NCBI GenBank assembly: GCA_937138345.1
Contig: CAKZOW010000075.1
Span: 616 to 64,615 of the forward strand
Length of the DNA: 64,000 bases
Direction: 5' to 3'
DNA from: an uncultured archaeon
GTDB lineage: Archaea; Nanobdellota; Nanobdellia; Woesearchaeales; UBA583
Below the pieces are notes generated by a model. The model was given only the letters and a program-made list of their open reading frames with translations, searched no databases and was not told where the DNA came from. Made by a program: the position numbers and the translations under genes. Below, piece after piece: positions 8,888 to 62,973 of the stretch (position 1 is the first letter of the stretch; every line of letters starts with the position of its first letter).

Positions 8888-9634
8888 TTAATTCTTTTTT
8901 GAATGTAATTGCCACAAAAAAATTAAACCTACAACCATAAAAAGTAGTGAAAGTAGTTGTCCCATACCAATTGGCCCCACCCAAACTTCTGGTTCTCTAG
9001 TAAAATTAACTAAAAATCTCAAACCATTATAGAGAATTAAAAACCATGCTGTAAGAACTCCAGGTTTAAGTGATTTAAATACATATAAAAAAAGTAATAC
9101 TTGAAAAATAAAAAAGTTTTTTGCACTCTCATATAGTTGAGATGGATGTCTTAGTTGATCATCAACTAATGGGAAAGTTACTCCAAAAGACGATGATGTA
9201 ACCTTCCCAACTAATTCTTGATTAATATAATTAGTAATTCTTCCAAAAGCCATCACCAAAGTTAGAGGAATTACTAAAACATCTAATAATTTTAAAACAG
9301 GTACTCTATAATGCCTACATGCGTAAATAATTGCTACTGCACCACCAAAAATTCCTCCATGAATAGACATACCACCTTGATCCACACGAATAATTGCTAG
9401 AGGATTTGCTAAGAAATAATCTAAATTATAAAATAAAATATGACCTAATCTTCCACCAAGAAGTCCAAATAACATCCCATAAAACAAAATATTTTCCAGT
9501 GTCTCTTTTTTTGCTCCAATAAAATTACTCTGAGTTCTAACAAACCAATAAGTAAATAAAAAACCAAGAGCATAGACTAGACCATACCAGTAAATATCAA
9601 TTGGTCCAACACTAAGAGCAATAGGAGAAATCAT
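8888..9634 (-). CDS. lgt: prolipoprotein diacylglyceryl transferase (bacterial-type Lgt)
   Basis: Lgt signatures present: IYWYGLVYALGF, GGRLGH, SIHGGIFGG, FGRITNYINQELVG, RHPSQLYES. Confidence 0.85.
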   Translation of the reverse strand: MISPIALSVGPIDIYWYGLVYALGFLFTYWFVRTQSNFIGAKKETLENILFYGMLFGLLGGRLGHILFYNLDYFLANPLAIIRVDQGGMSIHGGIFGGAVAIIYACRHYRVPVLKLLDVLVIPLTLVMAFGRITNYINQELVGKVTSSSFGVTFPLVDDQLRHPSQLYESAKNFFIFQVLLFLYVFKSLKPGVLTAWFLILYNGLRFLVNFTREPEVWVGPIGMGQLLSLLFMVVGLIFLWQLHSKKN

Positions 9635-10773: not shown

Positions 10774-10819
10774 AACATAATTTCATACTATGAGTTTAAA
10801 TATATTTGTTACAATAAAC

Positions 10820-10842
10820 AAACGTCAAGACTGGGATTTGAA
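10820..10842 (-). repeat. displaced duplicate of the tRNA-Ser 3' end (T-loop position 54 to discriminator, plus 3 nt)
   Basis: 23-bp exact copy (aaacgtcaagactgggatttgaa) of 10965-10987. Identity breaks exactly at the T-stem/T-loop boundary. Confidence 0.9.
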
Positions 10843-10964
10843 ACTTTTTGAGCAAAGCTCACAAAGTGCAAGAACAAATCTTGGATTTGTGTTTAGCATC
10901 AGAATGTAATTCTGGATAGAGAAAATTCTAGTCTTAGGTTTTATTGAAGCGGAGCTGAAAATAA
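10843..10964 (-). repeat. 122-bp insert X-A between tRNA-Ser and its displaced 3' fragment (candidate miniature insertion element)
   Basis: Alignable over its length with 62796-62898. A perfect 15-mer acaaagtgcaagaac lies at 10861-10875 and 62814-62828. Confidence 0.6.
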
Positions 10965-10967
10965 AAA

Positions 10968-11050
10968 CGTCAAGACTGGGATTTGAACCCAGAATTCCAT
11001 AAGGAACAAGATTTCCAGTCTTGCGCAATACCGGATTATGCGATCTTGAC
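10968..11050 (-). tRNA. tRNA-Ser (anticodon GGA)
   Basis: Cloverleaf read by hand. Acceptor GTCAAGA/TCTTGAC, anticodon arm CAAGA-CTGGAAA-TCTTG, long variable arm TTCCTTATGGAATT, T arm CTGGG-TTCAAAT-CCCAG. No encoded CCA. T-run follows. Confidence 0.9.
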
Positions 11051-11054
11051 GTAA

Positions 11055-11104
11055 TGCAATGAAGTCAATATAGCGACCAAGAATTTGAGTATCAAATTGT
11101 TGAG
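11055..11104 (+). repeat. 50-bp insert Y-T between the tRNA-Ser 5' end and its displaced 5' fragment
   Basis: gcgaccaagaatttgagtatcaaattgttgagtatg matches the dphB spacer at 12510-12545 (28/36 ungapped), and the second spacer less closely. Confidence 0.6.
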
Positions 11105-11122
11105 TATGCGATCTTGACGTAA
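11105..11122 (-). repeat. displaced duplicate of the tRNA-Ser 5' end (4 nt upstream plus tRNA positions 1-14)
   Basis: 18-bp exact copy (tatgcgatcttgacgtaa) of 11037-11054. Confidence 0.9.
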
Positions 11123-11247
11123 GTGTAATTTGTAGTAATTATCTTACTATAATAATAAAACTTAATTCACCTTTAAAAATATTGTGTATGATGAAATGTT
11201 ATCACTTGATAAGAAAAATATTTAAACAAAATATTTTTTATCTAACT

Positions 11248-11610
11248 ATGGAACCACAAATGGATTATAAAATACCTCTAAGAATTATTGAAACTAAAGA
11301 ATATCTCGACGATAAACTAGAAGTTGGAAATATTACCGATGATGAAAAAGTAATGATGGAAAGAATGGTAGCATTTTACAAATTATTACCTGAAGGAGCA
11401 GAAGATTTTGGAGAAATACCTTTCTATCCTCTAGAAGTAGATAGGGAAATGATAAGCAAGTTAAACACAAGAACAGTATATATGAAAAAAAGATGTAATG
11501 AATTTTGGTGTGAAAAAAAGAAAATAGAAGATGGAGATAGATTAACTACAAGAGTTTATTCTCATTTCAAAAGTGGTCTCGAAATCCTAGATTCAATGAT
11601 AAGATATTAA
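11248..11610 (+). CDS. hypothetical protein
   Basis: Track ORF is 11182..11610. I prefer the ATG at 11248 (MEPQMDYK). No recognisable motifs. Confidence 0.45.
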   Translation: MEPQMDYKIPLRIIETKEYLDDKLEVGNITDDEKVMMERMVAFYKLLPEGAEDFGEIPFYPLEVDREMISKLNTRTVYMKKRCNEFWCEKKKIEDGDRLTTRVYSHFKSGLEILDSMIRY

Positions 11611-11661
11611 TGAAGTAATCTTATAAATAAAGAAGCAGTTAATTAATTATATAAAATAAAA

Positions 11662-12501
11662 ATGTTACACGTAATGGGAATTGGTTATAAAAAAGAACAT
11701 CTAAGTCTAGAAATGATAAATGTTCTAAAAGAAGCAGACGAAGTATTCTTAGAGTACTATACCTCATTTTATGGTTCATCATTTGAAGAACTAGAAGAAT
11801 TAGTTGGTAAAAAAATTACTATTTGTGATAGAGAGATCATTGAAAGTAAAGTTGAAGAAGTAATTTTAAAACCAGCAAAAGAAAAATCAATTGTGTTAAT
11901 GGTAATTGGTGATCCTCTTGTAGCAACAACTCACACAGATTTATTACTTAGAGCAGAAGATTTAGAAGTAGAAGCACAAGTATACCACAATGTATCAATT
12001 GCAAATTTCATTGCAAGAACAGGACTTCAATTCTACAAATTTGGAAAAATTACTTCTATTCCATTCTTCTCAGAAAAATTCATGCCAAGAACACCTTATA
12101 TGGTATACCTAGATAATCACAAAATGGGAGCTCATTCTCTATTTTTACTTGATTTAAACCCATCAAATGACATTGCAAACAAAGGTCACGATAAATATTT
12201 ATCTGCAGGAAAATCTTTACAATTCTTACTTGATGTTCCAAAATTAATGCTAGAAAATGAAGAAATCGAAGAAAAAGACACTCTTGCATTAGATGAAGAA
12301 GATAGAGCGATAATTTGTTCAAGACTAGGACACAAAGATGAAAAAATTGTCTATGGATCGATGAAAGATTTAATTGCATTTGATTCAGAACACATGCTAA
12401 AAGAACCACTTTGCCTAATCATCCCTGGAGACCTCCACGAAATGGAGGAGAACTACTTAAGTCAATTTCAAATTTCTAAGTTTAAATCATATCAAGAGTA
12501 G
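11662..12501 (+). CDS. dphB: diphthine synthase
   Basis: MLHVMGIGY..., VFLEYYTS, IGDPLVATTHTDLLLRA, VYHNVSI. Typical archaeal Dph5/DphB methyltransferase. Confidence 0.9.
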   Translation: MLHVMGIGYKKEHLSLEMINVLKEADEVFLEYYTSFYGSSFEELEELVGKKITICDREIIESKVEEVILKPAKEKSIVLMVIGDPLVATTHTDLLLRAEDLEVEAQVYHNVSIANFIARTGLQFYKFGKITSIPFFSEKFMPRTPYMVYLDNHKMGAHSLFLLDLNPSNDIANKGHDKYLSAGKSLQFLLDVPKLMLENEEIEEKDTLALDEEDRAIICSRLGHKDEKIVYGSMKDLIAFDSEHMLKEPLCLIIPGDLHEMEENYLSQFQISKFKSYQE

Positions 12502-12699
12502 TTCTCAACCGACCAATAATTTGTATAGAAAATTATTGAGTATGGAAGAAAATTATTTATCACAGTTTCAAATCAGTAAATTCAAAAGTTACCAAGAATA
12601 AATAATTTTTTGCCGATCAAGAATCTCTGATTGTTGAATATGGAGGAGAACTACTTAAGTCAATTCCAGATTTCAAAATTTAAGTCTTACGAAGAATAG
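12502..12699 (+). repeat. two extra tandem copies of the dphB 3'-terminal 60 bp (12542-12601, 12640-12699) with 40- and 38-bp spacers
   Basis: Each copy starts with ATG and ends with a stop. They encode MEENYLSQFQISKFKSYQE and ...SYEE. They differ from the genic copy almost only at synonymous positions. Confidence 0.95.
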
Positions 12700-13848: not shown

Positions 13849-15396
13849 TTATGCTGCTTTGTCTTCAAGAGATGTTTGATCATCATTAGCAGCTTCAACT
13901 TGATTTGAAATAAGTTCATATCTTTGCTGAACCATTTCCCAATTCCCAAAAAGCATTTTCTGGAATTTTTCCAAGTCTACAGTAAGGTTTTCTACAGGAG
14001 TATCATACTCTTGATATGAATCTTTTCCAATTTTTGCCATAAATGCTCTTGATTTTTTTTGTTTAAATTCTTTATCAACAACAATTCCTCCTGTTCCTTT
14101 ATGCCAATGACCCGAATGTGCAGTAATATCTCCTTCTTCATCTTTTTCAACATTAGTTTCAATATATGCTTCTAAACCTAAATGGATAACTCTATTATCA
14201 TTATTTATATTATATCCAACTACATCTCCTCTTTCATCATGAAGAAAAATCTTATCTACTCTTTGTTCTCCAATCTCATACCCCAACATAAGTCCTGCCA
14301 TTCTCTGAGCATCAATAGATTGACTAAAAATATCACTTAAATCAACTTTCCCTTCTAATTCTTTAAATTGATCTCTTGTTACATAAGTATTATCAAAGCA
14401 TTGTTGAAACATTAATTGTTGTTCTATTGGATTGTAAATCATCCCCACAAGTCCTGGAAAGTTACCTGGACAATGATTTGCTATTTGAAATGAAAATTTA
14501 TCCTCTCCTGAACCTAAATCAATTGATCCATGAATTTCCATTGCATTGTAAATTACTTCATCTGCTTTTTGTAAATTTGAACCCTCAACTAATTTATTGT
14601 ATTCTTGTCTAAATAGGTGTGTATCTGATAGAGAACCATGATTTCCACCTTCTTCAATTACCATTGTTGCTCCCCAACCATTTTCATGTGCCCTAATATT
14701 AGCATCATAGAGTACTTTTGCTTTTTCTTGAGCAATGTATTGGGCATTAGTAAAATCCATAGTAACTCCTAACCTTTTAACTTCACTTTCTGCTTTCTTA
14801 ATTTCATCTTGTTCTGATTCTAAAAGGTCTTCTACTCTTTGTCTAACATTATTTTGTTCAACATAATCTAATGCAGTAGAATATTGTTTTCTAAGATCAT
14901 CTGCTTGAATAGTATTACCCATTGCTTTTTGCATATATATTAATTCTTCCAAATCTCCACCATACTTTTTCTCAATTTGATGAACAAATGCATAATTTTG
15001 AACATCCTCAAGATCCATTTTTTGAGCCAAATAATTTAATTCAACTTGATCTGGCGTAGGTAGTTGAAATGTTTGATAAAGTCCACCTAAATGCTCTCTC
15101 CTATCGTTCGTATCTCCTAAAACTACTACATTTGTTTTTCCATTTGCTTCTTGTTGAAATTGATCTATTGCATTCTCTAAAGAAATCGTAGCAGTGTGAA
15201 TATCTGGTGCATAAAGGACTTGATTATATGCATTATCAATTTTAAATTCTTTTGGAGTGTATTCATATCCTGAATAGAATAAACTTTGCGTTAATTCAAC
15301 ATCTTTTCTCATCTGAATAACATCAGCTGTAGAAAAAACATCATCATTAGCAGCAATATCATAATTATTACCTGAGTCTTCTTGAGGTAAAGCCAT
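13849..15396 (-). CDS. metallophosphoesterase-domain protein (large, divergent)
   Basis: Calcineurin-like motif series: APDIH, VVVLGDTNDRRE, EEGGNHGS, AHSGHWHKG. Confidence 0.55.
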   Translation of the reverse strand: MALPQEDSGNNYDIAANDDVFSTADVIQMRKDVELTQSLFYSGYEYTPKEFKIDNAYNQVLYAPDIHTATISLENAIDQFQQEANGKTNVVVLGDTNDRREHLGGLYQTFQLPTPDQVELNYLAQKMDLEDVQNYAFVHQIEKKYGGDLEELIYMQKAMGNTIQADDLRKQYSTALDYVEQNNVRQRVEDLLESEQDEIKKAESEVKRLGVTMDFTNAQYIAQEKAKVLYDANIRAHENGWGATMVIEEGGNHGSLSDTHLFRQEYNKLVEGSNLQKADEVIYNAMEIHGSIDLGSGEDKFSFQIANHCPGNFPGLVGMIYNPIEQQLMFQQCFDNTYVTRDQFKELEGKVDLSDIFSQSIDAQRMAGLMLGYEIGEQRVDKIFLHDERGDVVGYNINNDNRVIHLGLEAYIETNVEKDEEGDITAHSGHWHKGTGGIVVDKEFKQKKSRAFMAKIGKDSYQEYDTPVENLTVDLEKFQKMLFGNWEMVQQRYELISNQVEAANDDQTSLEDKAA

Positions 15397-16320: not shown

Positions 16321-16467
16321 GGCTAGCTACCCCAGAAGCATCGTCCACCCCGCGATTCCCAAGCACTTTTTAACAAGCTTAGTGCTGCTGAGTTCCCCCC
16401 CTGACACGATTCACTTGAAAAAAAGCCATGGAAGACAGAGCTTCTACCTTATCTTCTAGGACTAACC
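16321..16467 (-). ncRNA. signal recognition particle RNA, short form (S-domain only)
   Basis: Minus strand reads GUG-UCAGGGG-GGAA-CUCAGCAG-CAC, the helix-8 symmetric-loop/GNRA motif of SRP RNA. The 5' GGUUAGU pairs with the 3' GCUAGCC. A TATA-like TTTATAAATA lies about 22 nt upstream and UUUU follows. GC-rich island in AT-rich DNA. Confidence 0.6.
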
Positions 16468-19742: not shown

Positions 19743-19794
19743 AAAAATCAAAGTAAAAAATAATATAATTGTATTTTTTGAAGAAAAAATAATT

Positions 19795-19921
19795 AAAAAT
19801 TAGCAAAGCTAATTTTTGTAGCTTTTTTGACAAAGTCAAGGATGTTCAAAAACTAACATAGTTAGTTTTTGTAGCTTTATTTCTAAGAAATAAAGTTCAA
19901 AAATTAGCAAAGCTAATTTTT
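19795..19921. terminator. array of five A5-stem-loop-T5 hairpins between convergent genes (likely bidirectional terminators)
   Basis: AAAAATTAGC-AAA-GCTAATTTTT occurs at 19795 and 19899. AAAAACTAAC-ATA-GTTAGTTTTT at 19848 has compensatory changes. These are interleaved with TTGAC-AAA-GTCAA and TTTATTTCT/AGAAATAAA. The last hairpin contains the ppa stop codon. Confidence 0.6.
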
Positions 19922-20440
19922 GTATTCTTTATCATAGAGCTCAAATGACTTTTGAATACTCTCAATTGCTGTTGCTCTATCTTCCCAAGCCCCAACTTCA
20001 ACTTCTTTTTTCTGTAAATTCTTATAAACTTTGAAAAACTCTTGCATCTCCGCTAAAAGGTGAGGTGCAACATCAGTAATTTCTTTCATATGAGCAAATC
20101 TTGGATCTTTTACAGGAACTGCTAAAACTTTGGCATCTCCTTCACCACCATCAATCATATCTAAAACACCAAGTGCTCTACATTTTACAATACAACCAGG
20201 AACTAATGGTTCTTCAGATAGTACTAATACATCAAGAGGATCACCATCTTCCCAAAGTGTTTGTGGAACAAATCCATAATTTGCAGAGTAATGCATAGGA
20301 GAGTATAATACTCTATCAAACATAATTAAACCTGTATCTTTATCTACTTCATACTTTACTCTAGATCCTTTAGAGATTTCAATTACAGCTGTAAATTCTT
20401 CTGAAGATTTTCTATCAACATCGTGCCATAAATTAACCAT
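19913..20440 (-). CDS. ppa: inorganic pyrophosphatase (family I)
   Basis: EDGDPLDVLVL and DGGEGDAKVLAVP motifs over a 175-aa length. Confidence 0.9.
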   Translation of the reverse strand: MVNLWHDVDRKSSEEFTAVIEISKGSRVKYEVDKDTGLIMFDRVLYSPMHYSANYGFVPQTLWEDGDPLDVLVLSEEPLVPGCIVKCRALGVLDMIDGGEGDAKVLAVPVKDPRFAHMKEITDVAPHLLAEMQEFFKVYKNLQKKEVEVGAWEDRATAIESIQKSFELYDKEYKN

Positions 20441-30182: not shown

Positions 30183-31013
30183 ATGAGCAAAAAACTACAA
30201 TATATTTCTCTAGGTAACAATGTTTCTCTAGAATCAATACTTGAACTTCAAAGAAAAATATGTAGTTTTTATAGGCAATATCCTGGAGTTAACTGTATGT
30301 ATTCTTTCTCACCAAAACCAACAATTACTCTTGGAAGTTACCACAGGGACAACAAATTACATCCGAGTTTAAATTCTCCAGTAATGAAACAAGAAGCAGG
30401 TGAACAAAGAACTCAAGAGATTGCTACTTATTTAAGAGATAAGTTAGATAATGAAATTTCAGTGTTAAATAATTCTAATCAAAGGCCCGGTGGAAGTACA
30501 TATAATGGGCCTGGACAATTAAGCTTCTTTTTTAATCTTGACCTAACACAAGAAAGTATTCATTTTGATGAACTCAAAAAAGTACTTGATGAATCTATGA
30601 TTGAAACTCTAAAATCATATAGAAATGATCTAAATTTTAACTATAAAAAACAAATTGATATCTTTACTACAATCGAGGGAACTGATTATAAAATTGCATC
30701 TCAAGGATTCAAAGTTTCAACTAATGAGTCTAAAGTTGAACATACAAGATACGGAGTCACATTTCATCTTTCTCAGGATTCCATTAAACCCTTTGATTCT
30801 TGGATTTTACCTTGTGGAGTTGAACCACATGAAGGAAAAGCAATAGCTCTTGAACAACTTATTGAAGAACCTGTAAATCAAGAACTCTTTGAAAATAAAT
30901 TTCTAGAAATATTTTCATCAAAACTAGGCTTTGAAGTTGATTCAACAAATATCATTGGAGATGTTATAAAAAAAGAGTTTGAAGAGATAGAGAGAAAATT
31001 AAAACTTAAATAG
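30183..31013 (+). CDS. lipB: octanoyl/lipoyl transferase LipB-like
   Basis: RPGGSTYNGPGQL (compare RGGxxTYHGPGQ), DYKIASQGFKV (catalytic Lys region), ILPCGV (catalytic Cys region). Confidence 0.6.
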   Translation: MSKKLQYISLGNNVSLESILELQRKICSFYRQYPGVNCMYSFSPKPTITLGSYHRDNKLHPSLNSPVMKQEAGEQRTQEIATYLRDKLDNEISVLNNSNQRPGGSTYNGPGQLSFFFNLDLTQESIHFDELKKVLDESMIETLKSYRNDLNFNYKKQIDIFTTIEGTDYKIASQGFKVSTNESKVEHTRYGVTFHLSQDSIKPFDSWILPCGVEPHEGKAIALEQLIEEPVNQELFENKFLEIFSSKLGFEVDSTNIIGDVIKKEFEEIERKLKLK

Positions 31014-35110: not shown

Positions 35111-38100
35111 TCATTCTAATCCTACTAACACCTCTTTAAAGAATTCTCTTCTTGTTTGAGATGAAATATTTACTCTTAGTTCCCAAGAATTATCTAACGT
35201 TCGACTACCAGTATATGCACTAAATACTCCTTGATTTAGCATCAAAGAATAGAGCTCAAATTCATACAATGTTCCATTAGTTGAATATACATCAATTAGG
35301 TTTTCATTTTCTTGGAAAACGCTATATCTAAGTGAGCTTCCAACATCAAAACTACTTACAGAAACATAGTCTGGAACATAAAGATGCAATGTAATATTCT
35401 TATCAAGAGTAGTTTGATCAGATAATAAATTATTTACTCTAAAAATTGTATCATATACTCCTTCACCTAATTGAGTAGATTCTATTTCTAAAGATAAATT
35501 TGTATCAAAATTAATTTCATCAATTATCTCAACTGTTGTTAGTTGAGTTTGATCACCATTACTTAATTCTCCAAAAATATCATATGATGTATTAATATCA
35601 CCTGATGCATTAAGAAGATAACCAAGAACGATACTCTCACCAAATACTAAATTCAAATTCACTGGGTTTGGACCTTCAATGAACAACGGCAATTCTGCAC
35701 TCGTATTTGAAATTAATGAATATCTCCTCTCTTCAGATGAAAAAGAATAACTAGGATCTGATCCAAAATATTCTCTAATAAAAATATCATCTGTTAAATA
35801 CTCATTTCCACCATGAATTGTAAATCTACTAAATGATGAAAATGTATTATCATTTCCAGTCATAAAATTTAATTGAGTATAACTAGAATCAAAAATTTCA
35901 AATTCTATATCTTGGTTGAAATAAGAAAATCTTTGTGTATACCACGCATTCTGAGATGTTGCAAAATTAGTTCCTGTTGCAACAGTTGATGCTACGTCCC
36001 CTGTTCTCTCTTCAATTTGAAATTGTGTACTTGCCCCAAAATTATTCAGATAAGGACCATACCCATTCCCAGAATTGTCACTTAGTGCATACCGATTAGC
36101 ACCTCCACCATTAGTATTAATTCTATTTGTTTTCAGATACATTTCATAATTTACAAAGTTAAATCCTACATCTACAAATCCTCCATTAGGATCATCATTT
36201 GTATCTTTAAGCAAGGCTCTATTCCCACTAGTCTCTGTAGCTAATCGCACTACTCCCGAATCCAAGTCACTCCACCCAACTGGGAGACTTCCGTCTAATT
36301 GACTGACAAAATTTTCAAAGTCCTCAAAATACAAAAACGTCTCAGCACCGTCACTTCTACTGATAGCCTCATCATTACCATAATAAAATTCAAAATTATA
36401 TTGTTGAGAAACTACTAAAGGAATATGTGATTCAATAAAAATTCTAGCTACTTGAGATCCGAAATCACAGTAATCAACATAATAATCAAGTTCTAATCCT
36501 GATGATGAAAATAAAAAATCATTACATTGGTTATTCCAATTAAAATTAGACCCAACATTTGAATTATTTAACTCAAGTAGATATACAAAATTCTCAGTTG
36601 TTGTGGCAGGTGCTGTAAAGGAGATATTTTGCCTATATGCATAACTCCTATTAAACCAAGGTTTATCTAAATCATCAAAATATAAACTTGAAGTAATATT
36701 TGAGCAACCTAAAACATCTTGACAAGATACATTTACGCTAACTAAAAGAGTCGTATTTTGAATAACTTGAGTAGTAGATAATGGTAGAGGATTTACTAAA
36801 TCAATATCTAATGATTTAACTACAATTGAACATTGAAGTGTAAGAGTATCTGTAGTTGAAGTATCATCTGAACTAACTTCAAAAACTGCACTAACAGTAC
36901 CCACATTAGAATCTAAGCATGAAAAGAATACTTCCGAGCTTTGATTTTCTACAAGAGAAGATCCTTGAGTAAAACTTGTTGAAAAAGAAGAACAATTTCC
37001 TGAAATACAAGTAATAAAAATATTTGAATTTGCATATCTTGAAAATAAATTTGTAGAGTTGATTTCATTACCTTCACTTTGAAAAACTTCATCAAAAGTA
37101 ATTAATGAATCCTCAAAAGTTAACTGGTTTTCTCCTAAAATTCTCAATTCAAGTCTTTGAGTATCTACTAAATTACCTAACTCCCCAAACATAACATGTC
37201 TACTATCAACAGGACCTGTTGCATTAAGAAGATATGTTACAAGAGATGATGTTCCTGAACTTACATTGATGAACTGAGGATTACTATCTAAGTAAAAAGG
37301 AGTTGAGCCAAGAATTGGAGAAACTAATTCTTTAGAACCAATAGTCATCAAACCTTCTTCTAAAGTAAACCATGCAACATCTTCATTTGCGTGAGTATCA
37401 CAATCACCAGCACCATCTTGCTCACAATACCTCACCTCAGCACTAGTGCCGGACACGAGTCTAGCGCTTGGGTATTGAGGGTCCTGTGCTCCATTATCTG
37501 AGTTTTGATACACAGCAATAACTGGATCTACAAATGTCTCAGAAAAACTAACAGGAGTCCATTCAGAATTTCCAATACTCTCTTCTCCATTTGAAAACCT
37601 AGAAAAATCTGCATTTGAAAAATCAATTGCAACATATCCATAAGTCTCACTAAAAGTACCCGAACACGTATCGCCAGTCCCCGCATGATCACATGCAATA
37701 AGTGTAGCACCACTTGTTGTAATTGTTCCATCAACCCAACCACTAGGTGCAATCTGACCTGTTGCACTGGAATAGTCTTGAGCTTGTGCAAATACACTCG
37801 GAACATTAGAAAATGTTTTTGAAAAACTAAATGCGGTATCTGATCCATCAGTTGGAACATTAGAGAGAGTTCCAACATCAATCCAACTCAATCCTGAAAT
37901 AACATCAGAATCAAAAACCATGTAATGAACTTCTTCTTGTTCAACAACTGATGAACAAGTACTAGCACCAGCATCTTCACAAAGTGCAATAGTAAATCCC
38001 GTAGTATCTAGTGAAGTGATAACTGGAATTAAAGCATTATTGTCTGAATCTGTATCACTTACAGGAGTTGCAATTACAACAGGATTTGATGAATATTCTC

Positions 38101-41100
38101 TCTCAAAAGTAATTCTCTGTGATTCAAAATTCTCTAAAGTTACACTACCCGTCTCACCAATAGATTGCAAATCATAATACAAACTAACATTAACATCTAT
38201 ACAATCAACTACATCTGCACAAGTAACATTTAATGTAATTGGGAAGGTAGTATTTTGTTCAACATCAAAAAGAACATCTGGATCTGGATTTTGCATAGTA
38301 ACATAAAGTGGTAGCTCAGTTGCTTCACAATCTAAAGCAATAGTATCTCCACTTGAATCCTGATTAGAAAATACTTGAAATACAGCGCTAAAGTTTCCTG
38401 CAACAGATGCTGAACAGATAAATTCAATTTCTGAAGTGTTTAAAGAGTCAATAGTAGAACCTTGAGCAAACGGAGTTGAAAATAAAGAACAATCTCCACT
38501 CAAACAACTAACCTGAACATTAGTATGATCTACTACACTTGCATCAAGTTGAGTAGATAAACTAACAGGATTATAATTTACAACAACCCCATTAAAATTT
38601 AAAGTATCATCTACAAAAGAAATTCTTGGCCTATCAACAATACTAACATTTACTAAATTTGAAATAACTTCTGGAAGAGATGACTTTGTTCTAACTTCTA
38701 ATTCATGGAATGAACCCAAAGGACCTGTACTATTAACTTGAAAAGAAACTACACAAGAACCATCAATTGGCACTAAACAAGAATCAGTAGTAGAACCCAG
38801 GATTCTAAATGGAGATAACGAACTATTTGTAACTTGGATGCTATTTGCATACAAACTAACATCCACATCCCCACAAGAGCCATTACATGATAAATTTACA
38901 TCAAGGTTAAAACTTTGATTTTGAAGAACTTCAGTATTTGAAATTGGAGAAATAATTGTAGCATTTAATGAACTCTCACGAATAATAACACTCACATTAT
39001 TTGAAATTGGACCATAATTTGTTAAGCCAAATAATGTAAACAATGAATTCTCTGGAGCATTTGATGAAAGACTAAATGTTCTTGACTCTGAACTCCCCGC
39101 AGATACACTAAATGCTTGAGGATTCTGAGCAGTCCATAATGGATAAGTATTATTTATAGTAGAGATACTATCTTGACTTGAACTCATAGTTTGAATTAAA
39201 CCTTCCTCTAAAGCAAACCAAGCAACATCTTCATTTGCGTGAGTATCACAATCACCAGCTCCATCTTGTTCACAATACCTCACCTCTGCACTAGTGCCGG
39301 ACACGAGTCTAGCGCTTGGGTATTGTGGATCTTGACCCCCATTATCTGAGTTTTGATACACAGCAATAACAGGATCTACAAATGTCTCAGAAAAACTAAC
39401 TGGAGTCCATTCAGAATTTCCAATACTCTCCTCTCCATTTGAAAACTTAGAAAAATCTGCATTTGTAAAATCAATTGCAACATATCCATAAGTCTCACTA
39501 AAAGTCCCAGAACACGTATCGCCAGTCCCCGCATGATCACATGCAATAAGTGTAGCACCACTTGTTGTAATTGTTCCATCAACCCAACCACTAGGTGCAA
39601 TCTGACCTGTTGCACTGGAATAGTCTTGAGCTTGTGCAAATACACTCGGAACATTAGAAAATGTTTTTGAAAAACTAAATGCGGTATCTGATCCATCAGT
39701 TGGAACATTAGAGAGAGTTCCAACATCAATCCAACTCAATCCTGAAATAACATCAGAATCAAAAACCATGTAATGAACTTCTTCTTGTTCAACAACTGAT
39801 GAACAAGTACTAGCACCAGCATCCTCACATAATGAAAATTCAACATGTGTTGTATTAAGGTTATGAATAACTGGAATTAAAGCATTATTGTCGGAATCTG
39901 TATCACTTGCAGGAGTTGCAATTACAACAGGTGTTGAATTATATGTTTTCATAAATTCAATCAATACCCTTTGATTATTCTGAGTTGTAAATGAACCTGT
40001 CTCACCAATTGATTCTACTCCATCATAAATCAAATCTATAGTAACACCTGAACAATCAAGTGCACCTACACAACTAACATTAAATACAACATCAAGTCCT
40101 TCATTTAAATAAAAATCACTTGGATTAGCAATAGGAGATACAACATCAATAGTAATTGTTGAAGGTGGAGAAATTACAAAAGTATCTTCTAAATTAATTG
40201 TTGGTAATGTAGCATGAGAACAACTCACATTATAAAAAAAACTTCCTGCACTTGGAAAAGTTGAATAAAAATCATATTGCCCAATTGATGTATTATAGTT
40301 CATTGGAGAAAAAGAGCCATAACTTCCATTTGTATTAAATTGAATTTGACAATTTGCATCATCAACTTGTGATGTATTAACAAAACTATAATTTGCAAAA
40401 AAACCAATCTCAGTATTTATACCAACTGGAAAAAAATCACTATAATCATAAATTGATAAGGAACTATTTTCTACAACAGTATAATTTGAAAAATGAGGTA
40501 CACCTACTTCTAAAATTCCTCCAGAATAAGTTAAAATACTACATTGAGTACAAATACTATTTCCGTTAACCAATACAATCGGTTCAACTTCATCGATATT
40601 GTAAAATCTCAAAATAGCAGACACATTGTAGTTGGTAAGAACCTGAGAATCTAAGCTCATAAATGAATCAGAAATTGTAACATAAGTATCTAGATCTGCA
40701 TTGTCTGCATCAATACATTGTGTAAATTCAATACTCCCAAAAGAAGTATTTTCAAGAATTAAGTTACAAACATTTGAGATATTTGACACTAATGATAAAT
40801 CTGTTGTAGTACCATCAAAAGTTTCATAAGAAACATTCAATGGACTAATTAAAGTAATCTGTCTTGATAGTAATTCTACCTGAGATGAAGTTCTATCTTC
40901 TGCTCTTAGCGTAAAATTATAATTCCCAGGAGTTATTGAAATAGTTGTGGTGACATCGCTACAATCTGAACATAAAGAAACAAATGAACCACCATTTAAT
41001 GAATATGAGAAATCAGAACTTTTCGTTGCAAAAGCATCAACTAAAATTGAATTTCCAATAGATGTCAAATTCTCAAGCGGAGATATTAATGATACAACAT

Positions 41101-44100
41101 AAGGAATTACTACAGGTTCTAATACTTCAAAACTAACATCATCATTATCATAATACTGGCCCACATTTGCACAAAAATCATTTTCTCCATCCCAATCAAC
41201 AATACATCTTACATAATGAGTACCTGTTACATCATCCACAGTAAATGTTTGAGAAACAGAGTTAGGGTTTCCATCTACAGCATTACCACTGAAGAGCTGA
41301 GTCCAGTCTGTTGAATTGTAGTAATACATATATATCTCAGTTCCAGCGTCATAAGGATCATAAAAACAAGTAGCTTCAACACTAGTTCCCCAAAACATAG
41401 TTGACATATTAATTTCTACCTCTTGTACATTTTCATCACCAGCATTACCCAAACTACTTGAGCACGAATCAAAGGTATTATCTCCCTCGCTTGTTGCAGG
41501 CCACAAAGAACAATCAAAGCCAAAAGTATCACTACATGTCCTACCAGAAGTATTTATAAGAGTTAATGGATCTACATAAAAAACACTGAAATTTATTGTT
41601 TCATTGATAATTTCTGAAGTTAAAATGTCCTGAGCAAATAGTGTTAATGAATAATTACCATTTCTAAATACTTCATCAATTAGGAATGTATCACAAGATG
41701 AACATATCTCAACGCCTGGTCCACCATTAATTGAATAAGAAATATCTGCATTTTTTGAAGTAAGTCCTGAAATACTAATAACTGGATTAGTATATTCTAT
41801 ATTCAAAGGAGAAAGAAGAGATAATGTAAATGGGATTTCAACTAATTCTAAAACCTCAATACTTGCATCATCATTATCATAATAAGAACCACCATCTCCG
41901 CATTGATCATTCTCACCATCCCAGTCAACAATACACCTGTAATAATGAGTACCAACAACTGAGTCAACCTGATGAACAACACTCACATTATGAACATTAG
42001 CATCTGGAGCATTACCACTGTAGAGCTGAGTCCAATCTGTTGTGTTATAATAATAGATATACTCCTCAGTTCCTGCACCATAAGGATCAAATTGACATGT
42101 TACCTCAACACTATCTCCACCATACACTAATGTTGAATTAATAAAAACCTCGTCAACATGCTCGTCTCCAGCACCTCCTATCGCGCTTGGGCATGAGTCA
42201 AAGGTATTATCCCCCTCACTTGTTGCAGGCCACAAAGAACAATCAAAGCCAAAAGTATCACTACAAGTTCTCTGTGTACTATCAGCTGGAGGATTAATTA
42301 TATCACTAGTTACACTAAATGATTCTATCCATATATTTTCTTCCAATGTACTATCTGCTACTGCTCTAACTTCAATATCATAAGAACCAATAGTCAAAAA
42401 TATTATTTCATCAAAACTAATACAATTAGAACAAATTTCAATAAAAGAACCGCCATTAATTGAATAAGAAATAGTAGAGCTAACATCTGTAGTTCCAGCT
42501 ACAGTGATCAATGGTGATGAATATGCTAAGTTTTGAGGTGAAGTGATATTTAAAAACGGATTTAGTACTTCAAAACTAACATCATCATTATCATAATATT
42601 GTCCTGTCTCAGCACAAAAATCATTCTCACCATCCCAATCAATAATACATCTTACGTAATGAGTACCTGAAACTAAAGAAACGGGAATTGTCGCACTCAC
42701 TTGATGAACATTACCATCAGGAGCATTCCCAGCATATAATTGAATCCAATCTGTTGTATTGTAGTAATAAATATACTCTTCAGTTCCTGCACTATATGGA
42801 TCAAACGTACAAGTAGCTTCAACAGATTCTCCAAAATAAACCAAGGAAGAATTTACAATAACACTATCAACATGCTCATCATTAGCACCCCCAGTACTTG
42901 AAGGACATGAGTCAAAAGTATTATCTCCTTCGCTTGTTGCAGGCCAATCTGAGCAATCAAAGCCAAAAGTATCGGTACATGATCTCTGAGTTCCCTGTAC
43001 TAGTGGATCAATTGCAAAAAGCCATGATCTATTTTCAAGAAAGTAATCCTGTGTTCCATAAGAAATTTGAGCTCTTCCTAATTCATATAAATATGGAGTT
43101 AGCAGAGGAGTTTGAGAATAATAAAAGAAATTTTCATGTGTAGAAATATTATCCCAAATAAGATATTTTCTTGATTTATCTTCTGATTGTTCTACCCTAT
43201 CTGCATTAGTATCTGTAATCTCAAATGTTGAAGGAATACTTTCCCTTAATTCAGTTATTTGGTTTAACTCATAATTGGTTAAAGTAAATTCATTTCTAAA
43301 AGGCCCTAAAAAAGGATCAATTGTCGCTGGCACATTTCTTATAATATCAAAAGGAATAGTATCAACAACATTCACATAACTTTTTCTATTTAATTCATAA
43401 TCTCCTACCTGTGTCGTAACATCAATGAGATATTTTCCAGTCTCAGTTACATTATAATATGCAAAATATACACCATTTTTTTTACTCTCAACAATTCCTC
43501 TATCTTGTGTTGTTATTTGTATGAAATCCCCTCCTGGAGTTTCTAACTGAAGTGATATATTTGAAGAAGAAACTAAATAACCATTAGGATCTAAAACTAC
43601 AATTACAAATTTTACAATAGATTGTACTTCATAAAGAGGCTTTTGAGTATTAATTGAAACCAACCCATATGCAAAAAATTCATCATCTCCCATTATCGTT
43701 TCTTTCTTATAAATACCTGGAGTTAAATTTTGTAAACTTGAATTTACAAAAACCTCCTTAGTATTTAAGTTAATATAAGTATTTTCTTGAGATTGATTTT
43801 CTAAATCTTGAGATTCTAAAGAAGGTAGAAAAACTTTTTCCTGAGATCTAGCATTTGTCTCCTCGTCTAAAAATATTACTGTTGAATTCTCCAAAAGAAT
43901 AATCTCTTCATCTTTTTCAATAAGAACTTTTTCTTCAGTACCATCTAAATTAATTTTTGTAATTTCTCTTTGAGTATCAATACTCTGTTCTCTAAAAGAA
44001 GAATTAAATAAAGAAGTAGTATTTACACTTCTTGGTTTTTTAATTGGTTTCTCAACTTCCTCTTTTTTCTCAATAATACTCTCAAGTTCAGAATCATCTT

Positions 44101-62775: not shown

Positions 62776-62795
62776 CCCTCCGACCGGGATTTGAA
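62776..62795 (-). repeat. displaced duplicate of the tRNA-Glu 3' end (T-loop position 54 to discriminator)
   Basis: 20-bp exact copy (ccctccgaccgggatttgaa) of 62899-62918. Identity breaks at the same T-loop position as at tRNA-Ser. Confidence 0.9.
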
Positions 62796-62898
62796 ACTTT
62801 GAGAGTGAAACGAACAAAGTGCAAGAACGAGCTTGGCGAGTGTCTGGCATAATGTTGAAAATTACACATAGAAAAATATCGTTGCTAAGCTATAAATA
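62796..62898 (-). repeat. 103-bp insert X-B between tRNA-Glu and its displaced 3' fragment (homologue of X-A)
   Basis: Begins actttgagag... (X-A begins actttttgag...). Shares acaaagtgcaagaac, gtgt.t.gcat..aatgt and atagaRaaaat blocks with 10843-10964. Confidence 0.6.
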
Positions 62899-62973
62899 CC
62901 CTCCGACCGGGATTTGAACCCGGGTCACAGCCGTGAGAGGGCTGCATGATTGGCCGGACTACACTATCGGAGG
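62899..62973 (-). tRNA. tRNA-Glu (anticodon CUC)
   Basis: CCTCCGA-TA-GTGTAGTCCGGCCAATCAT-G-CAGCC-CTCTCAC-GGCTG-TGAC-CCGGG-TTCAAAT-CCCGG-TCGGAGG-G. The D-arm is typical of archaeal tRNA-Glu. First pair reads C1-G72. TATA-like TTTTATTATAG upstream. No encoded CCA. Confidence 0.85.

Follow-up and report, generated by a model that had tools for sequence, protein, structure and literature searches.

The stretch of DNA analysed here as a whole (the window; 64,000 nt of contig CAKZOW010000075.1, GCA_937138345.1, positions 616 to 64,615, forward strand) originates from a marine DPANN archaeon of the Woesearchaeales. It carries five short inserts, each separating the intact end of a conserved gene from a displaced copy of that end (Table 1). 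At the 3' end of tRNA-Ser, positions 10820-10842 repeat 10965-10987 (23/23 nt) across the 122-nt insert X-A, whose module, read on the minus strand, finishes ...GTTCTTGCACTTTGTGAGCTTTGCTCAAAAAGT, flush against the displaced tRNA end. At the 5' end of the same gene, 11037-11054 recur at 11105-11122 (18/18 nt) beyond the 50-nt insert Y-T. The 3' end of tRNA-Glu is likewise repeated, 62776-62795 being identical to 62899-62918 (20/20 nt), with the 103-nt insert X-B between them. At dphB two units, S1 and S2, are stacked in an array with a period of about 100 bp; the first 10 nt of S2, ATAATTTTTT, are similar to the native flank downstream of the stop codon. All five gene-terminus duplications of the original prediction were confirmed, coordinates included, as was the polarity that it assigned to the inserts: intact end, insert, conserved module, displaced copy.

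Table 1. Target genes, inserts and duplicated gene ends in the window.
Feature	Position	Strand	Remarks
Displaced tRNA-Ser 3' end copy	10820..10842	-	T-loop to discriminator base + 2 T
X-A insert, 122 nt	10843..10964	-	T-rich trailer, then conserved X module
tRNA-Ser(GGA), intact target gene, units at both ends	10967..11051	-	ARAGORN; Rfam tRNA 57.3 bits
Y-T insert, 50 nt	11055..11104	+	Y-type hairpin core CGACCAAGAATTTGAGTATCAAATTGTTGAGT at ~11074-11105
Displaced tRNA-Ser 5' end copy + 3-4 nt leader	11105..11122	+	Repeat of 11037-11054
dphB, diphthine synthase, 279 aa	11662..12501	+	In-frame tail = last 20 codons, 12442-12501 (copy 1)
S1 insert, 40 nt	12502..12541	+	Hairpin core CGACCAATAATTTGTATAGAAAATTATTGAGT at 12510-12541
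dphB tail copy 2	12542..12601	+	19 nt, 0 amino acids different from copy 1
S2 insert, 38 nt	12602..12639	+	Hairpin core CGATCAAGAATCTCTGATTGTTGAAT at 12614-12639
dphB tail copy 3, most distal	12640..12699	+	9 nt, 1 amino acid different from copy 1
Displaced tRNA-Glu 3' end copy	62776..62795	-	T-loop exactly to final tRNA base
X-B insert, 103 nt, homologous to X-A	62796..62898	-	Sequence comparison
tRNA-Glu(CTC), intact target gene	62899..62973	-	ARAGORN; Rfam

A protein-level scan revealed no further gene-terminus duplications in the 64-kb window. The 'tRNA-SeC' call (30805-30899) lies within an ORF and is spurious, so that both genuine tRNA genes of the window bear units. The comparison was extended to about 85 kb of the window species and a dozen relatives; no additional copies of the units were detected in the ~85 kb, and every unit found lies in a conserved gene end, none in intergenic DNA. 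No unit contains an ORF, and Pfam analysis of the window ORFs revealed no integrase, transposase, reverse transcriptase, Cas protein, TnpB or other recombinase. An assembly artefact was rejected, as evidenced by the identical structures in MEGAHIT, SPAdes, TARA and Logan assemblies of different samples.

The inserts had been proposed to form one family. Their architecture and polarity are indeed common, but at the sequence level there are two families of one design, X-A/X-B and Y-T/S1/S2. Homology between X-A and X-B extends over ~85 nt, most of their length (0/1000 shuffles reached the score), whereas the similarity of either to any Y-type unit was not significant, with 259-632 of 1000 shuffles scoring as well. 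What the X and Y classes have in common is a terminal hairpin flush with the junction and AGT at the end. Y-T, S1 and S2 contain a ~32-nt hairpin of the form CGAYCAA-stem/loop-TTGART, the 3' end of which is flush with the displaced duplicate. In its strict form this pattern is confined to these three sites of the 64 kb. The looser form is in excess, with six matches (at least one of them not a hairpin) against 0.36 expected in dinucleotide shuffles; three matches were reached in just one of 200 shuffles.

The Y/S motif is a genuine hairpin, with DNA-fold z-scores ranging from -2.8 to -6.9. Compensatory changes occur at 4 of the 10 consensus pairs of the Y-type hairpin: its foot exchanges AC/GT for AT/AT with the structure kept, and its apical stems interchange between CTCC/GGAG, TTTC/GAAA, TTTGA/TCAAA and AACGAG/CTCGTT. 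In S1 of strain L004 the stem interior is wholly different and pairing is maintained. Y-type hairpins are found at the dphB tail, the tRNA-Ser 5' end and the tRNA-Ser T-loop, and X-type modules at the T-loops of tRNA-Ser and tRNA-Glu; the choice of target goes with the segment carried by the unit. The inserts have no Rfam match, either at gathering thresholds or at E<=10. A hairpin beside tRNA-Gly in L152 was rejected as an unrelated local stem. The pyrophosphatase gene has a comparable small hairpin array overlapping its stop codon.

The step from an empty to a filled allele is precisely one unit, 68, 113 or 123 bp in size. Y-T (68 bp including the repeat) is missing from strain L004, where a precise empty site is found. 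X-B (123 bp including the repeat) is carried by the window, L009, L013 and L016, while six strain contigs (L008, L010, L011, L014, L015 and L017) have the precise empty site and L012 (GCA_041253975.1) has a longer variant of about 162 nt. The presence/absence polymorphism sought on the basis of the original prediction is thus evident for X-B and Y-T among near-identical strains. A sixth unit, X-C (113 bp, with a Y-type hairpin), lies inside the displaced tRNA-Ser 3' copy of strains L002 and L021, two units being stacked at this tRNA end in some strains; it is missing from the window, L001 and L003, the flanks of which are otherwise identical to those of L002 and L021. The dphB sites are empty in both sister species, L006 (85% amino-acid identity) and L007 (80%), and the tRNA-Ser of L007 is uninterrupted. 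As judged from these two species, the empty site is the apparent ancestral state. Presence/absence could in part reflect loss via direct-repeat recombination rather than recent gain.

Further dphB loci, 11 in number, were obtained in a metagenome scan. In two other species-level lineages, L154 and L163-L169, whose dphB has about 72% nucleotide identity to that of the window, CGACCAAGAAT...ATTGTTGAGT directly precedes a repeated copy of the lineage's own MEERYLKTFHS tail. This Y-type unit occupies the dphB codon homologous to the window site, bringing the total to three lineages. Taken together, the strain and species comparisons indicate that the units are mobile. The units of L154 and L163 have diverged to about the same degree as the host genes, so that vertical descent, selection having somehow preserved the distal copies, may account for their distribution.

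The origin of the tail copies is clearest in these two lineages. Compared with the tail of L152, an empty-site relative, the distal tail of L154 agrees at 33 of 36 nt and its proximal tail differs at 11 of 36; the distal tail of L163 is similar to that of the empty-site lineage L190. Between L154 and L163, the proximal tails differ at 2/36 nt and the distal tails at 9/36. TTG, TTC, TCA and TAG codons are present in both proximal tails and in none of the four native tails. By comparison of the tails, the proximal copies of L154 and L163 were shown to be a separate tail type common to both lineages, and the distal copies to be native-like. The tail differences in L154 and L163 are all synonymous (P<5e-5 by randomisation). 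Recoding of the proximal protein-coding copies reaches 14/20 and 8/12 codons with no amino-acid change, and is moderate (6/12 codons) in L163. A 'designed' maximal recoding was rejected, given this L163 value; saturation-level synonymous divergence suffices. The unit boundaries are sharp at both ends. Proximal and distal copies of L154 and L163 are identical in their first 9 nt. At the junction, native and unit tails have only a very short stretch in common: ATGGA in the window and ATGGAAGAA in these two lineages.

In the window species the sole comparable signal is the better conservation between strains of copy 2 plus S2 than of copy 3. Copy 2 plus S2 differ between the window and L004 at 2/98 nt, which is below the third-position divergence of 9.6% (P=0.003), and copy 2 is unchanged (60/60) across strains with 4% divergence. 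In copy 3, 9/60 positions differ (Fisher P=0.003 against copy 2 plus S2), and the L004 version has an in-frame stop. In several lineages the distal copies are intact at the protein level. Each tail copy appears to have diverged while it was the in-frame end of a functional dphB gene.

These data are interpreted here, with a probability of about 50%, in terms of non-autonomous, miniature site-specific insertion cassettes of a 'terminus-replacing' kind that are mobilised in trans. A unit of 68-182 bp comprises three parts: a replacement copy of the target gene end, which begins at the recombination point, extends to the end of the gene and often includes a few bases of the terminator or promoter flank; a short spacer; and a structured 3' module, either the Y-type hairpin (~32 nt) or the X module (~60-85 nt). 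The final base of this module adjoins the displaced native gene end. Insertion would keep the gene intact and shift its original end downstream as a fragment, and repeated insertion at one point would stack the units in arrays. A recombinase encoded elsewhere, on the chromosome, a plasmid or a virus, would move the units in trans. It would recognise the structure of the hairpin, probably in single-stranded DNA, and exchange strands between the foot of the hairpin and the opening bases of the matching gene segment. The whole unit would in effect be a bare attP site with its own repair patch.

Among the three hypotheses put forward originally, miniature integrative elements that rebuild the gene end are favoured because of the precise one-unit alleles, the X-A/X-B homology and the use of the same dphB codon in three lineages, although the description of such elements as decayed does not hold, the units being small by nature. 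A retroposon-like origin disagrees with the lineage comparison, in which the proximal dphB copy is not derived from the local target, and a host processing signal is contradicted by the presence/absence polymorphism and the unit-free sister species. None of the three had seemed to explain the synonymous recoding at dphB; if the mobile unit consists of a replacement gene end, spacer and hairpin, it brings its own tail, and the apparent recoding is therefore explained. Several observations speak against such mini-cassettes. Neither a recombinase nor a circular form nor an autonomous relative emerged from the sequences examined. A single-stranded or other intermediate must be assumed, because double-stranded circles as small as 70-180 bp are physically unfavourable. 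The junction identity, ATGGA or ATGGAAGAA, is short for a tyrosine-recombinase overlap, and several unrelated targets per hairpin family are unusual for protein-determined site specificity.

On the best reading, the units resemble target-rebuilding integrative elements, and they have the defining features of no described family. Elements that regenerate gene ends include e14 and phage 21 in the icd 3' end of E. coli and the dusA islands at a gene 5' end. Like the units, integrative elements produce direct repeats that begin at the crossover point (in a T-loop or within a coding sequence) and reach the gene end, and they supply a functional 3' or 5' end, mostly synonymous in its differences from the native end, which is displaced. 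Archaeal proviruses and islands located in tRNA genes, such as PYG1, have 44-bp repeats around inserts of 9-23 kb (PMC9897764). Integrative elements are, however, kilobases long and carry their own integrase, whereas the units are gene-free and of 68-182 bp, have a covarying hairpin exactly at one junction, with one hairpin family serving several targets, and stack in arrays with a period of ~100 bp. The CIMEs of Streptococcus thermophilus, located in the fda 3' end, are formed with ICEs via site-specific accretion. They are similar to the units in retaining att sites alone, with the integrase acting in trans, and in yielding tandem arrays by accretion, with three att copies at the end of a protein-coding gene, but they are kilobase-sized and have a known partner ICE, while the units are little more than an att site.

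Integron cassettes also carry at their 3' end a structure-specific hairpin of variable sequence with conserved unpaired bases; attC hairpins are roughly 57-141 nt long, in contrast to 26-36 nt here. As in integrons, the arrays could expand from a single point, the newest unit being proximal (here this order is inferred), the integrase may be missing from the locus, and recombination of a folded single strand would solve the small-circle problem. Cassette clusters without an integrase have been reported in archaeal MAGs, including Nanoarchaeota (PMC9668308). The targets of the units are tRNA and dphB ends rather than attI, and their 'cassettes' are copies of the target gene's own end. With respect to the attC boxes RYYYAAC...GTTRRRY, GTTGAGT fits GTTRRRY in some units, with no RYYYAAC partner. 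The integron G|TT crossover was rejected, as the junction follows the last hairpin base and the native targets lack TTRRRY. No cassette ORFs or IntI integrase were found within the 64-kb window.

Homing-endonuclease insertions in phage and organelle genomes leave duplicated or replaced gene ends, and a similar principle underlies synthetic 'home-and-rescue' drives. They have in common with the units a position near a conserved gene end, a diverged or recoded replacement, a native end left downstream and sharp boundaries; they differ in that no nuclease gene is present in or near the units and in that tRNA units cannot be recoded, leaving them without protection from cleavage. A rather doubtful explanation along these lines is a natural 'home-and-rescue' drive, in which the hairpin would be a guide-RNA scaffold and the adjoining native gene end the guide; a trans-acting TnpB, IscB, Cas12 or IS110-like nuclease or recombinase would target empty alleles, and the unit would be copied in by repair, with the recoded proximal copy as an uncleavable rescue. 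More generally, and with similarly low likelihood, the structured module plus gene-end copy would direct entry into that gene end elsewhere by base-pairing, the partner of which may be a putative hairpin-plus-guide RNA or the carried segment as single-stranded DNA. Such a system would be an ORF-less drive in which a new specificity arises from whatever adjoins the hairpin. The position of the hairpin, flush with the 5' end of the target copy as in scaffold-then-guide RNAs, is consistent with guided homing, as are the guide-like length of the tRNA repeats (18-23 nt), the several unrelated targets of a single hairpin family, the heavy recoding of proximal protein-coding copies (14/20 and 8/12 codons) and the sharp boundaries at both unit ends. 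However, the intact tRNA gene matches the putative guide perfectly in its native upstream context, and therefore a guided nuclease would cut the filled allele itself. The would-be seed, the first 9 nt, is identical in the proximal and distal copies of L154 and L163, recoding in L163 is only moderate (6/12 codons), and neither an Rfam RNA family match nor a TnpB or Cas gene in the window was found.

It is unlikely that the units are deletion scars of large viruses or plasmids once inserted by an integrase in tRNA and dphB ends, even though repeats from the T-loop to the tRNA end and an element-borne replacement of the gene end are classic marks of integrase elements. At least seven independent cases are all shorter than 185 bp, the mini-unit itself is the polymorphic entity, the hairpin is invariably exactly at the junction, and the X-A/X-B homology spans most of their length, which is not expected of random remnants. 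No kilobase-sized version occurs at ~16 dphB loci or in the strain contigs, and the modules and tRNA ends were not found in IMG/VR, phage or plasmid collections: IMG/VR scans with the X-box 15-mer, two Y-hairpin patterns and two tRNA 3' ends gave chance matches in coding DNA or nothing, and BLAST of positions 10800-11130 against phage and plasmid collections gave no match. A scan of GTDB genomes with ACTTTN{10,16}ACAAAGTGCAAGAAC, a pattern that is probably too strict, returned five chance bacterial matches and none in DPANN.

Hairpin elements mobilised in trans include the IS200/IS605-derived PATE and REP/REPIN. Together with MITEs they resemble the units in being short, ORF-less, hairpin-bearing and trans-mobilised, with an imperfect palindrome and a conserved mismatch or bulge. 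Unlike the units, they have hairpins or inverted repeats at both ends and no target duplication or a short fixed one, and are dispersed intergenically without a copy of a target gene. The units have a single terminal module and do have target duplications, which argues against IS200/IS605, and in place of the fixed 4-5 nt target of those elements, the bases upstream of the insertion points (CGAA, GATT, GGTT and GGG) show no common motif. As to MITEs, the 5' end agrees with the reverse complement of the 3' end at 5-7 of 20 positions, the palindrome is internal to one end, and the repeats are 18-70 nt, all in gene ends, instead of being short and fixed. A transposon- or retroposon-like hairpin element making long target-site duplications of variable length, from nicks 17-70 nt apart, with filled alleles spreading later via homologous recombination, is quite improbable. 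It would generate its own repeat for each target automatically, which would explain X units on two tRNAs, and is in agreement with the exact tRNA repeats of similar lengths (18, 19, 20 and 21-23 nt), with conservation greatest at the end beside the downstream repeat and with the closeness of dphB copies 1 and 3 (85%). Against it, the proximal dphB copy of L154 and L163 is not derived from the local target; the units lie only in conserved gene ends, though intergenic insertion would be harmless; they are not associated with terminal inverted repeats, poly-A, reverse transcriptase or transposase; and the tRNA 3' repeats end at the last tRNA base and vary in their starts (54, 56), unlike a fixed stagger.

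Specific mechanisms involving reverse transcription were rejected as well. For a target-primed, non-LTR retroposon-like process, the dphB proximal copies are not local, and neither an A-tail nor, in the window, a reverse transcriptase is present. Priming by tRNA is inconsistent with repeats starting at T-loop position 54 or 56 instead of 59 and with the lack of CCA after them. A diversity-generating retroelement is excluded by the substitutions, only 2-5 of 7-20 being from A and all types occurring, with the protein unchanged. A CRISPR array was likewise rejected, since its 'repeats' would be gene-tail copies 68-85% identical and its 'spacers' have a common conserved hairpin.

A non-mobile origin, either by local tandem duplication or replication slippage at hairpins followed by gene conversion, or as a host-encoded regulatory or processing cassette with both tails selected, e.g., a reversible switch, is very improbable: it accords with distal copies intact at the protein level in several lineages, L154 and L163 units about as diverged as their hosts and the similar small hairpin array overlapping the pyrophosphatase stop codon, but the inserts are unrelated to the native flanks and are thus not tandem copies, one module occurs at unrelated loci and in species ~72% identical in dphB (nucleotide), the sister species lack the module, copy 3 of L004 has a stop codon, and the junctions, read directly in the sequence, bear no bulge-helix-bulge or other splice signal. 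A bulge-helix-bulge intron was rejected on the further grounds that the post-junction sequences are alike and not complementary, and that L154 lacks a helix there.

If mobile, the terminus-replacing mini-cassettes would be the smallest known elements that enter genes and repair them, with a gene end and a hairpin as their only cargo. Gene-rebuilding site-specific integration would then be reducible to ~70-180 bp mobilised in trans, and an enzyme using a minimal hairpin and an exchangeable target segment could serve targeted insertion. Such units would account for short tRNA and gene-end fragments that are misread by annotation pipelines and, in genomes deemed poor in mobile DNA, for allele turnover concentrated at local hot spots like the dphB tail; they would also mark a new recombination activity in DPANN archaea.

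All gene-terminus duplications listed in the original prediction are present in the window, each at its predicted position, and a protein-level scan of all ORF ends in the window detected no further ones. The 3'-end region of tRNA-Ser (23 nt) recurs beyond the 122-nt insert X-A, the first 14 nt of the same gene with 3–4 leader bases recur beyond the 50-nt insert Y-T, and the last 20 nt of tRNA-Glu recur beyond the 103-nt insert X-B. Of the final 20 codons of dphB there are three copies, parted by S1 (40 nt) and S2 (38 nt), copy 1 being the in-frame tail. The predicted common polarity also holds: in every case the intact gene end is followed by the insert and then by the displaced copy, to which the conserved part of the insert adjoins. 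The tRNA 3' repeats begin at differing T-loop positions and stop at the final tRNA base; this is clear for X-B and for X-C (an additional unit found in two other contigs), and X-A is ambiguous by two T.

The window is AT-rich (26–36% G+C) chromosomal DNA of an uncultured marine DPANN archaeon, and several independent marine metagenome assemblies hold contigs identical or near-identical to it. It contains ordinary host genes, such as those for ribosomal proteins, the 2-oxoacid dehydrogenase complex, pentose-phosphate enzymes and gyrase A, while no integrase, transposase, reverse transcriptase or Cas protein was detected by Pfam among its ORFs. The product of dphB is a TP_methylase-family protein (Pfam), with closest relatives labelled as diphthine synthase from Woesearchaeota or Nanoarchaeota. 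Beside the tRNA-Ser/dphB locus, the window and all strain contigs encode a homologue of prolipoprotein diacylglyceryl transferase (LGT), an enzyme typical of bacteria. Only two real tRNA genes, tRNA-Ser and tRNA-Glu, are present; a tRNA-SeC(TCA) call is a false positive, since it lies inside an ORF for a lipoyl protein ligase A/B catalytic domain (LplA-B_cat) and has no Rfam tRNA match. The sole SRP RNA match in the window was to the bacterial small (4.5S-like) model (full 97 positions, 48.8 bits), with no archaeal match reported by Rfam, which suggests that the SRP RNA of this archaeon is strongly reduced. A single 3227-aa ORF with long internal repeats (families D2, D3 and D17, ~37.5–39.7 kb) likely encodes a giant surface protein. 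About 5–8 kb past the left end of the window, contig L188 carries a 23S rRNA gene followed by tRNA-Ala(TGC); the 660 nt upstream, AT-rich and ORF-free, contain no 16S gene, so the rRNA genes appear unlinked. No unit was seen at the 5' side of this tRNA-Ala or in the 49 nt on hand at its 3' side.

Coordinates of the features discussed, in the window and in strain or relative contigs
Feature	Contig	Position	Strand	Basis
LGT homologue	window	8888-9634	minus	PF01790
tRNA-Ser (anticodon GGA)	window	10967-11051	minus	ARAGORN + Rfam
tRNA-Ser (anticodon TGA)	L007	1764-1846
515-aa ORF	window	13849-15396
Region corresponding to the 515-aa ORF	L004	2811-3476
SRP RNA	window	16344-16441	minus	Rfam
Palindrome array	window	19790-19925
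Pyrophosphatase gene	window	19913-20440	minus
LplA-B_cat ORF	window	30183-31013	plus	Pfam
tRNA-SeC(TCA), rejected	window	30805-30899	minus	ARAGORN
3227-aa ORF	window	35111-44794	minus
X-B	window	62796-62898
X-B, longer variant	L012	2031-2192
tRNA-Glu	window	62899-62973	minus	ARAGORN + Rfam
23S rRNA gene, then tRNA-Ala(TGC)	L188	17799-20884

Inserts Y-T, S1 and S2 have in common a Y-type hairpin of 26–32 nt, 5'-CGAY-CAA-n-stem-loop-stem-n-TTG-A-RT-3', whose final base is the final base of the insert. Its folding is well above that of shuffled sequences (z -2.8 to -6.9), and an alignment of eight members of the Y family reveals compensatory changes in four of ten pairs, with an internal mismatch and a bulged A kept throughout. 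In the 64 kb a strict pattern of this hairpin matches only the Y-T, S1 and S2 sites. The expectation that such a motif exceeds its chance frequency was borne out by a looser pattern, with six matches (at least one not a hairpin) against 0.36 expected; one of 200 shuffles reached three. X-A and X-B are homologous over ~85 nt, with a score reached in none of 1000 shuffles, and each ends in two small hairpins, the second of which (ACTTTG...CAAAGT) is flush with the junction. A shuffle test detected no significant sequence similarity between X-A/X-B and the Y-type units, and therefore two sequence families follow one design: of the single insert family originally proposed, the common design stands and the single sequence family does not. 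The inserts had no match in Rfam. The pattern of gene-end duplication plus insert is real and beyond chance.

Presence/absence polymorphism, suggested earlier as a check, is found when the window is compared with conspecific contigs from other samples, each kind of unit being a precise whole-unit difference. Both alleles are represented in the samples ERR2094167-9, the ERZ650160/1 runs and TARA SAMEA6044955. The tRNA-Glu site is uninterrupted in six contigs (...aataag|ccctccgaccggg...), and the window and three contigs carry the 123-bp X-B addition. An X-B variant in the MAG L012 (GCA_041253975.1) is ~59 nt longer and has an internal partial duplication: the TTATGCCAGACACT box and the GTTCTTGCAyyTTGTTC...CAAGAGT terminal module each occur in a second, diverged copy, as though an X module had entered another one or been duplicated inside it. 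Y-T is missing from strain L004, which is 96% identical to the window in dphB. Two contigs, L002 and L021, contain the extra 113-bp unit X-C within the displaced tRNA-Ser 3' copy. With a Y-type hairpin as its terminus (GGTACCAAGAATTCTATGTAATAGAATTGTTGAGAA|CAAATCCCAG), X-C shows that the tRNA T-loop, the X family's class of target, serves the Y family as well; no other observation links the two classes better.

Strain L004 keeps the dphB array, with an S1 hairpin whose interior is wholly different yet pairing (CCAAAAACGAGACTCGTTTTTGAGC). Between L004 and the window, copy 2 with S2 differs at 2 of 98 nt, copy 1 at 8 of 60 and copy 3 at 9 of 60. Against a third-position divergence of 9.6% in dphB, the middle unit is better conserved than expected of neutral DNA (P = 0.003) and also better than copy 3 (Fisher P = 0.003). 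In L004 a 515-aa ORF downstream of a PIN-domain gene has been replaced or has diverged strongly, with 60–100 differences per 100 nt across ~13.8–15.5 kb versus 1–12 elsewhere; it is a strain-variable gene beside the dphB hot spot.

The dphB tail is unduplicated in sister species L006 (amino-acid identity 85%) and L007 (80%), the tRNA-Ser of L007 is uninterrupted, and most of the more distant relatives have an empty dphB site. The syntenic tRNA-Ser carries a TGA anticodon in L007 and the more distant relatives, versus GGA in the window, reflecting either an anticodon shift or gene replacement at the locus. A Y-type unit is present at dphB in two lineages of another clade, L154 and L163–L169 (seven contigs), with dphB ~72% identical to that of the window at the nucleotide level. 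It occupies precisely the codon homologous to the window's site, ahead of the ATG in the conserved ...HEMEE... motif, and after it the clade's own shorter tail, MEERYLKTFHS, appears for a second time. The distal tail of L154 agrees at 33 of 36 nt with the tail of L152, a relative with an empty site, from which the in-frame proximal tail departs at 11 of 36; the distal tail of L163 resembles that of L190, an empty-site lineage. Between L154 and L163, the proximal tails differ at 2 of 36 nt and the distal ones at 9 (Fisher P = 0.046), and codons TTG, TTC, TCA and TAG, common to both proximal tails, occur in none of the four native tails. The mobile unit therefore comprises the tail copy, spacer and hairpin, with the resident tail left as the distal copy.

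All differences among these tail copies are synonymous (P < 5e-5, randomisation). This recoding, a puzzle in the original prediction, is answered by each copy having diverged while it was the in-frame end of a working dphB somewhere. The L154/L163 differences probably arose in separate lineages, not in situ; for the window species this holds less firmly, as copy 2 may once have been in frame in the ancestors of that species. Recoding is not maximal (6 of 12 codons in L163), so no special recoding process is needed.

A perfect 23-nt palindrome, AAAAAyTArC-www-GyTArTTTTT, also occurs three times between convergent genes of the window, at a spacing of 51–53 nt, and every spacer forms a small hairpin of its own. 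At its stop codon the pyrophosphatase gene overlaps with the first palindrome, and each copy repeats the last codons of this gene, TAC AAA AAy TAr (YKN and stop); changes in the middle copy are compensated and synonymous. At this place the 85%-identical sister species L006 has just one hairpin, a different one. The array may represent the gene-end phenomenon in a third, very short form, or an ordinary tandem repeat.

ORF-less units of 68–182 bp sit at specific positions in conserved gene ends, each carrying a functional replacement of the target gene end. The units stack, strains differ by whole units, and there is recurrence across species with both boundaries sharp. We consider the units to be trans-mobilised, site-specific terminus-replacing cassettes, with a probability of about 0.5; our confidence in any particular enzyme class is much lower. 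The earlier idea of miniature or decayed integrative elements rebuilding the gene end is essentially right and can be sharpened: the units include the replacement gene end, are miniature by nature, are polymorphic within a species and recur between species. Insertion would be site-specific and catalyzed in trans. The hairpin is the likely recognition element, because its structure is kept while the stem sequence is not and it is positioned exactly at the junction; it probably acts as folded single-stranded DNA, which would sidestep the closing of double-stranded circles of 70–180 bp. The hairpin foot would exchange strands with the first bases common to the carried and native gene segments. 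The junction of any excised circle would read as the hairpin joined to its own carried end (...ATTATTGAGT|ATGGAGGAGAACTACTTAAGTCAATTT), with copy-1 codons setting it apart from the chromosomal junction. Cassettes leave unexplained the few bases shared at the junction (ATGGA, or ATGGAAGAA), the common end of the tRNA 3' repeats despite their differing starts, and the use of one hairpin family on at least three unrelated targets, by which target choice follows the carried segment, not the hairpin.

In rebuilding their target the units behave like integrase-type elements, but they lack an integrase and are below kilobase size. Among such elements, e14 and phage 21 are located in icd, and dusA islands at a 5' gene end; their cis-mobilisable derivatives also form arrays by accretion. 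In archaeal tRNA-integrated islands, 44-bp repeats flank 9–23 kb of DNA (PMC9897764). Integron attC sites exist in archaeal MAGs, including Nanoarchaeota (PMC9668308), and resemble the units in the hairpin at the cassette end and in forming arrays; the R''/R' boxes and G|TT junction of integron cassettes are, however, absent. Neither the terminal inverted repeats and fixed short duplication of MITEs, nor the second hairpin end and fixed target motif of IS200/IS605-type elements, nor the adenine-specific changes of diversity-generating retroelements are found, and the units thus lack defining features of each known family compared. Full-text literature searches found no account of such units, which is weak negative evidence.

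The flush hairpin, the guide-like lengths of the tRNA repeats and the multiple targets could also be accounted for by a guide RNA, with the hairpin as scaffold, the distal copy as guide and the recoded proximal copy as rescue. This is unlikely: the intact tRNA gene would stay a perfect target at the tRNA units, and neither RNA nor protein evidence supports it. Slightly less probable still is an origin as remnants of large integrated elements: every unit is short, X-A can be aligned with X-B as a homologue for most of its length, no large version appeared in the strain contigs or at about 16 dphB loci, and the IMG/VR, phage and plasmid collections gave no viral source. Insertion of a transposon or retroposon with long duplications of its target agrees with the exactness of the tRNA repeats, but neither with the imported dphB tails nor with the restriction to gene ends, and is more doubtful again. 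Purely local duplication or a host-encoded cassette is the least probable, the inserts being foreign, polymorphic and recurrent across species, even if intact distal copies and the host-like divergence of the L154 and L163 units keep alive a scenario with both tails under selection.

Overall, we rate the cassette system as gene-rebuilding site-specific insertion reduced to a hairpin and a patch. Should the units instead represent a programmable, base-pairing-directed system, which we think improbable, the finding would rank far higher in importance.
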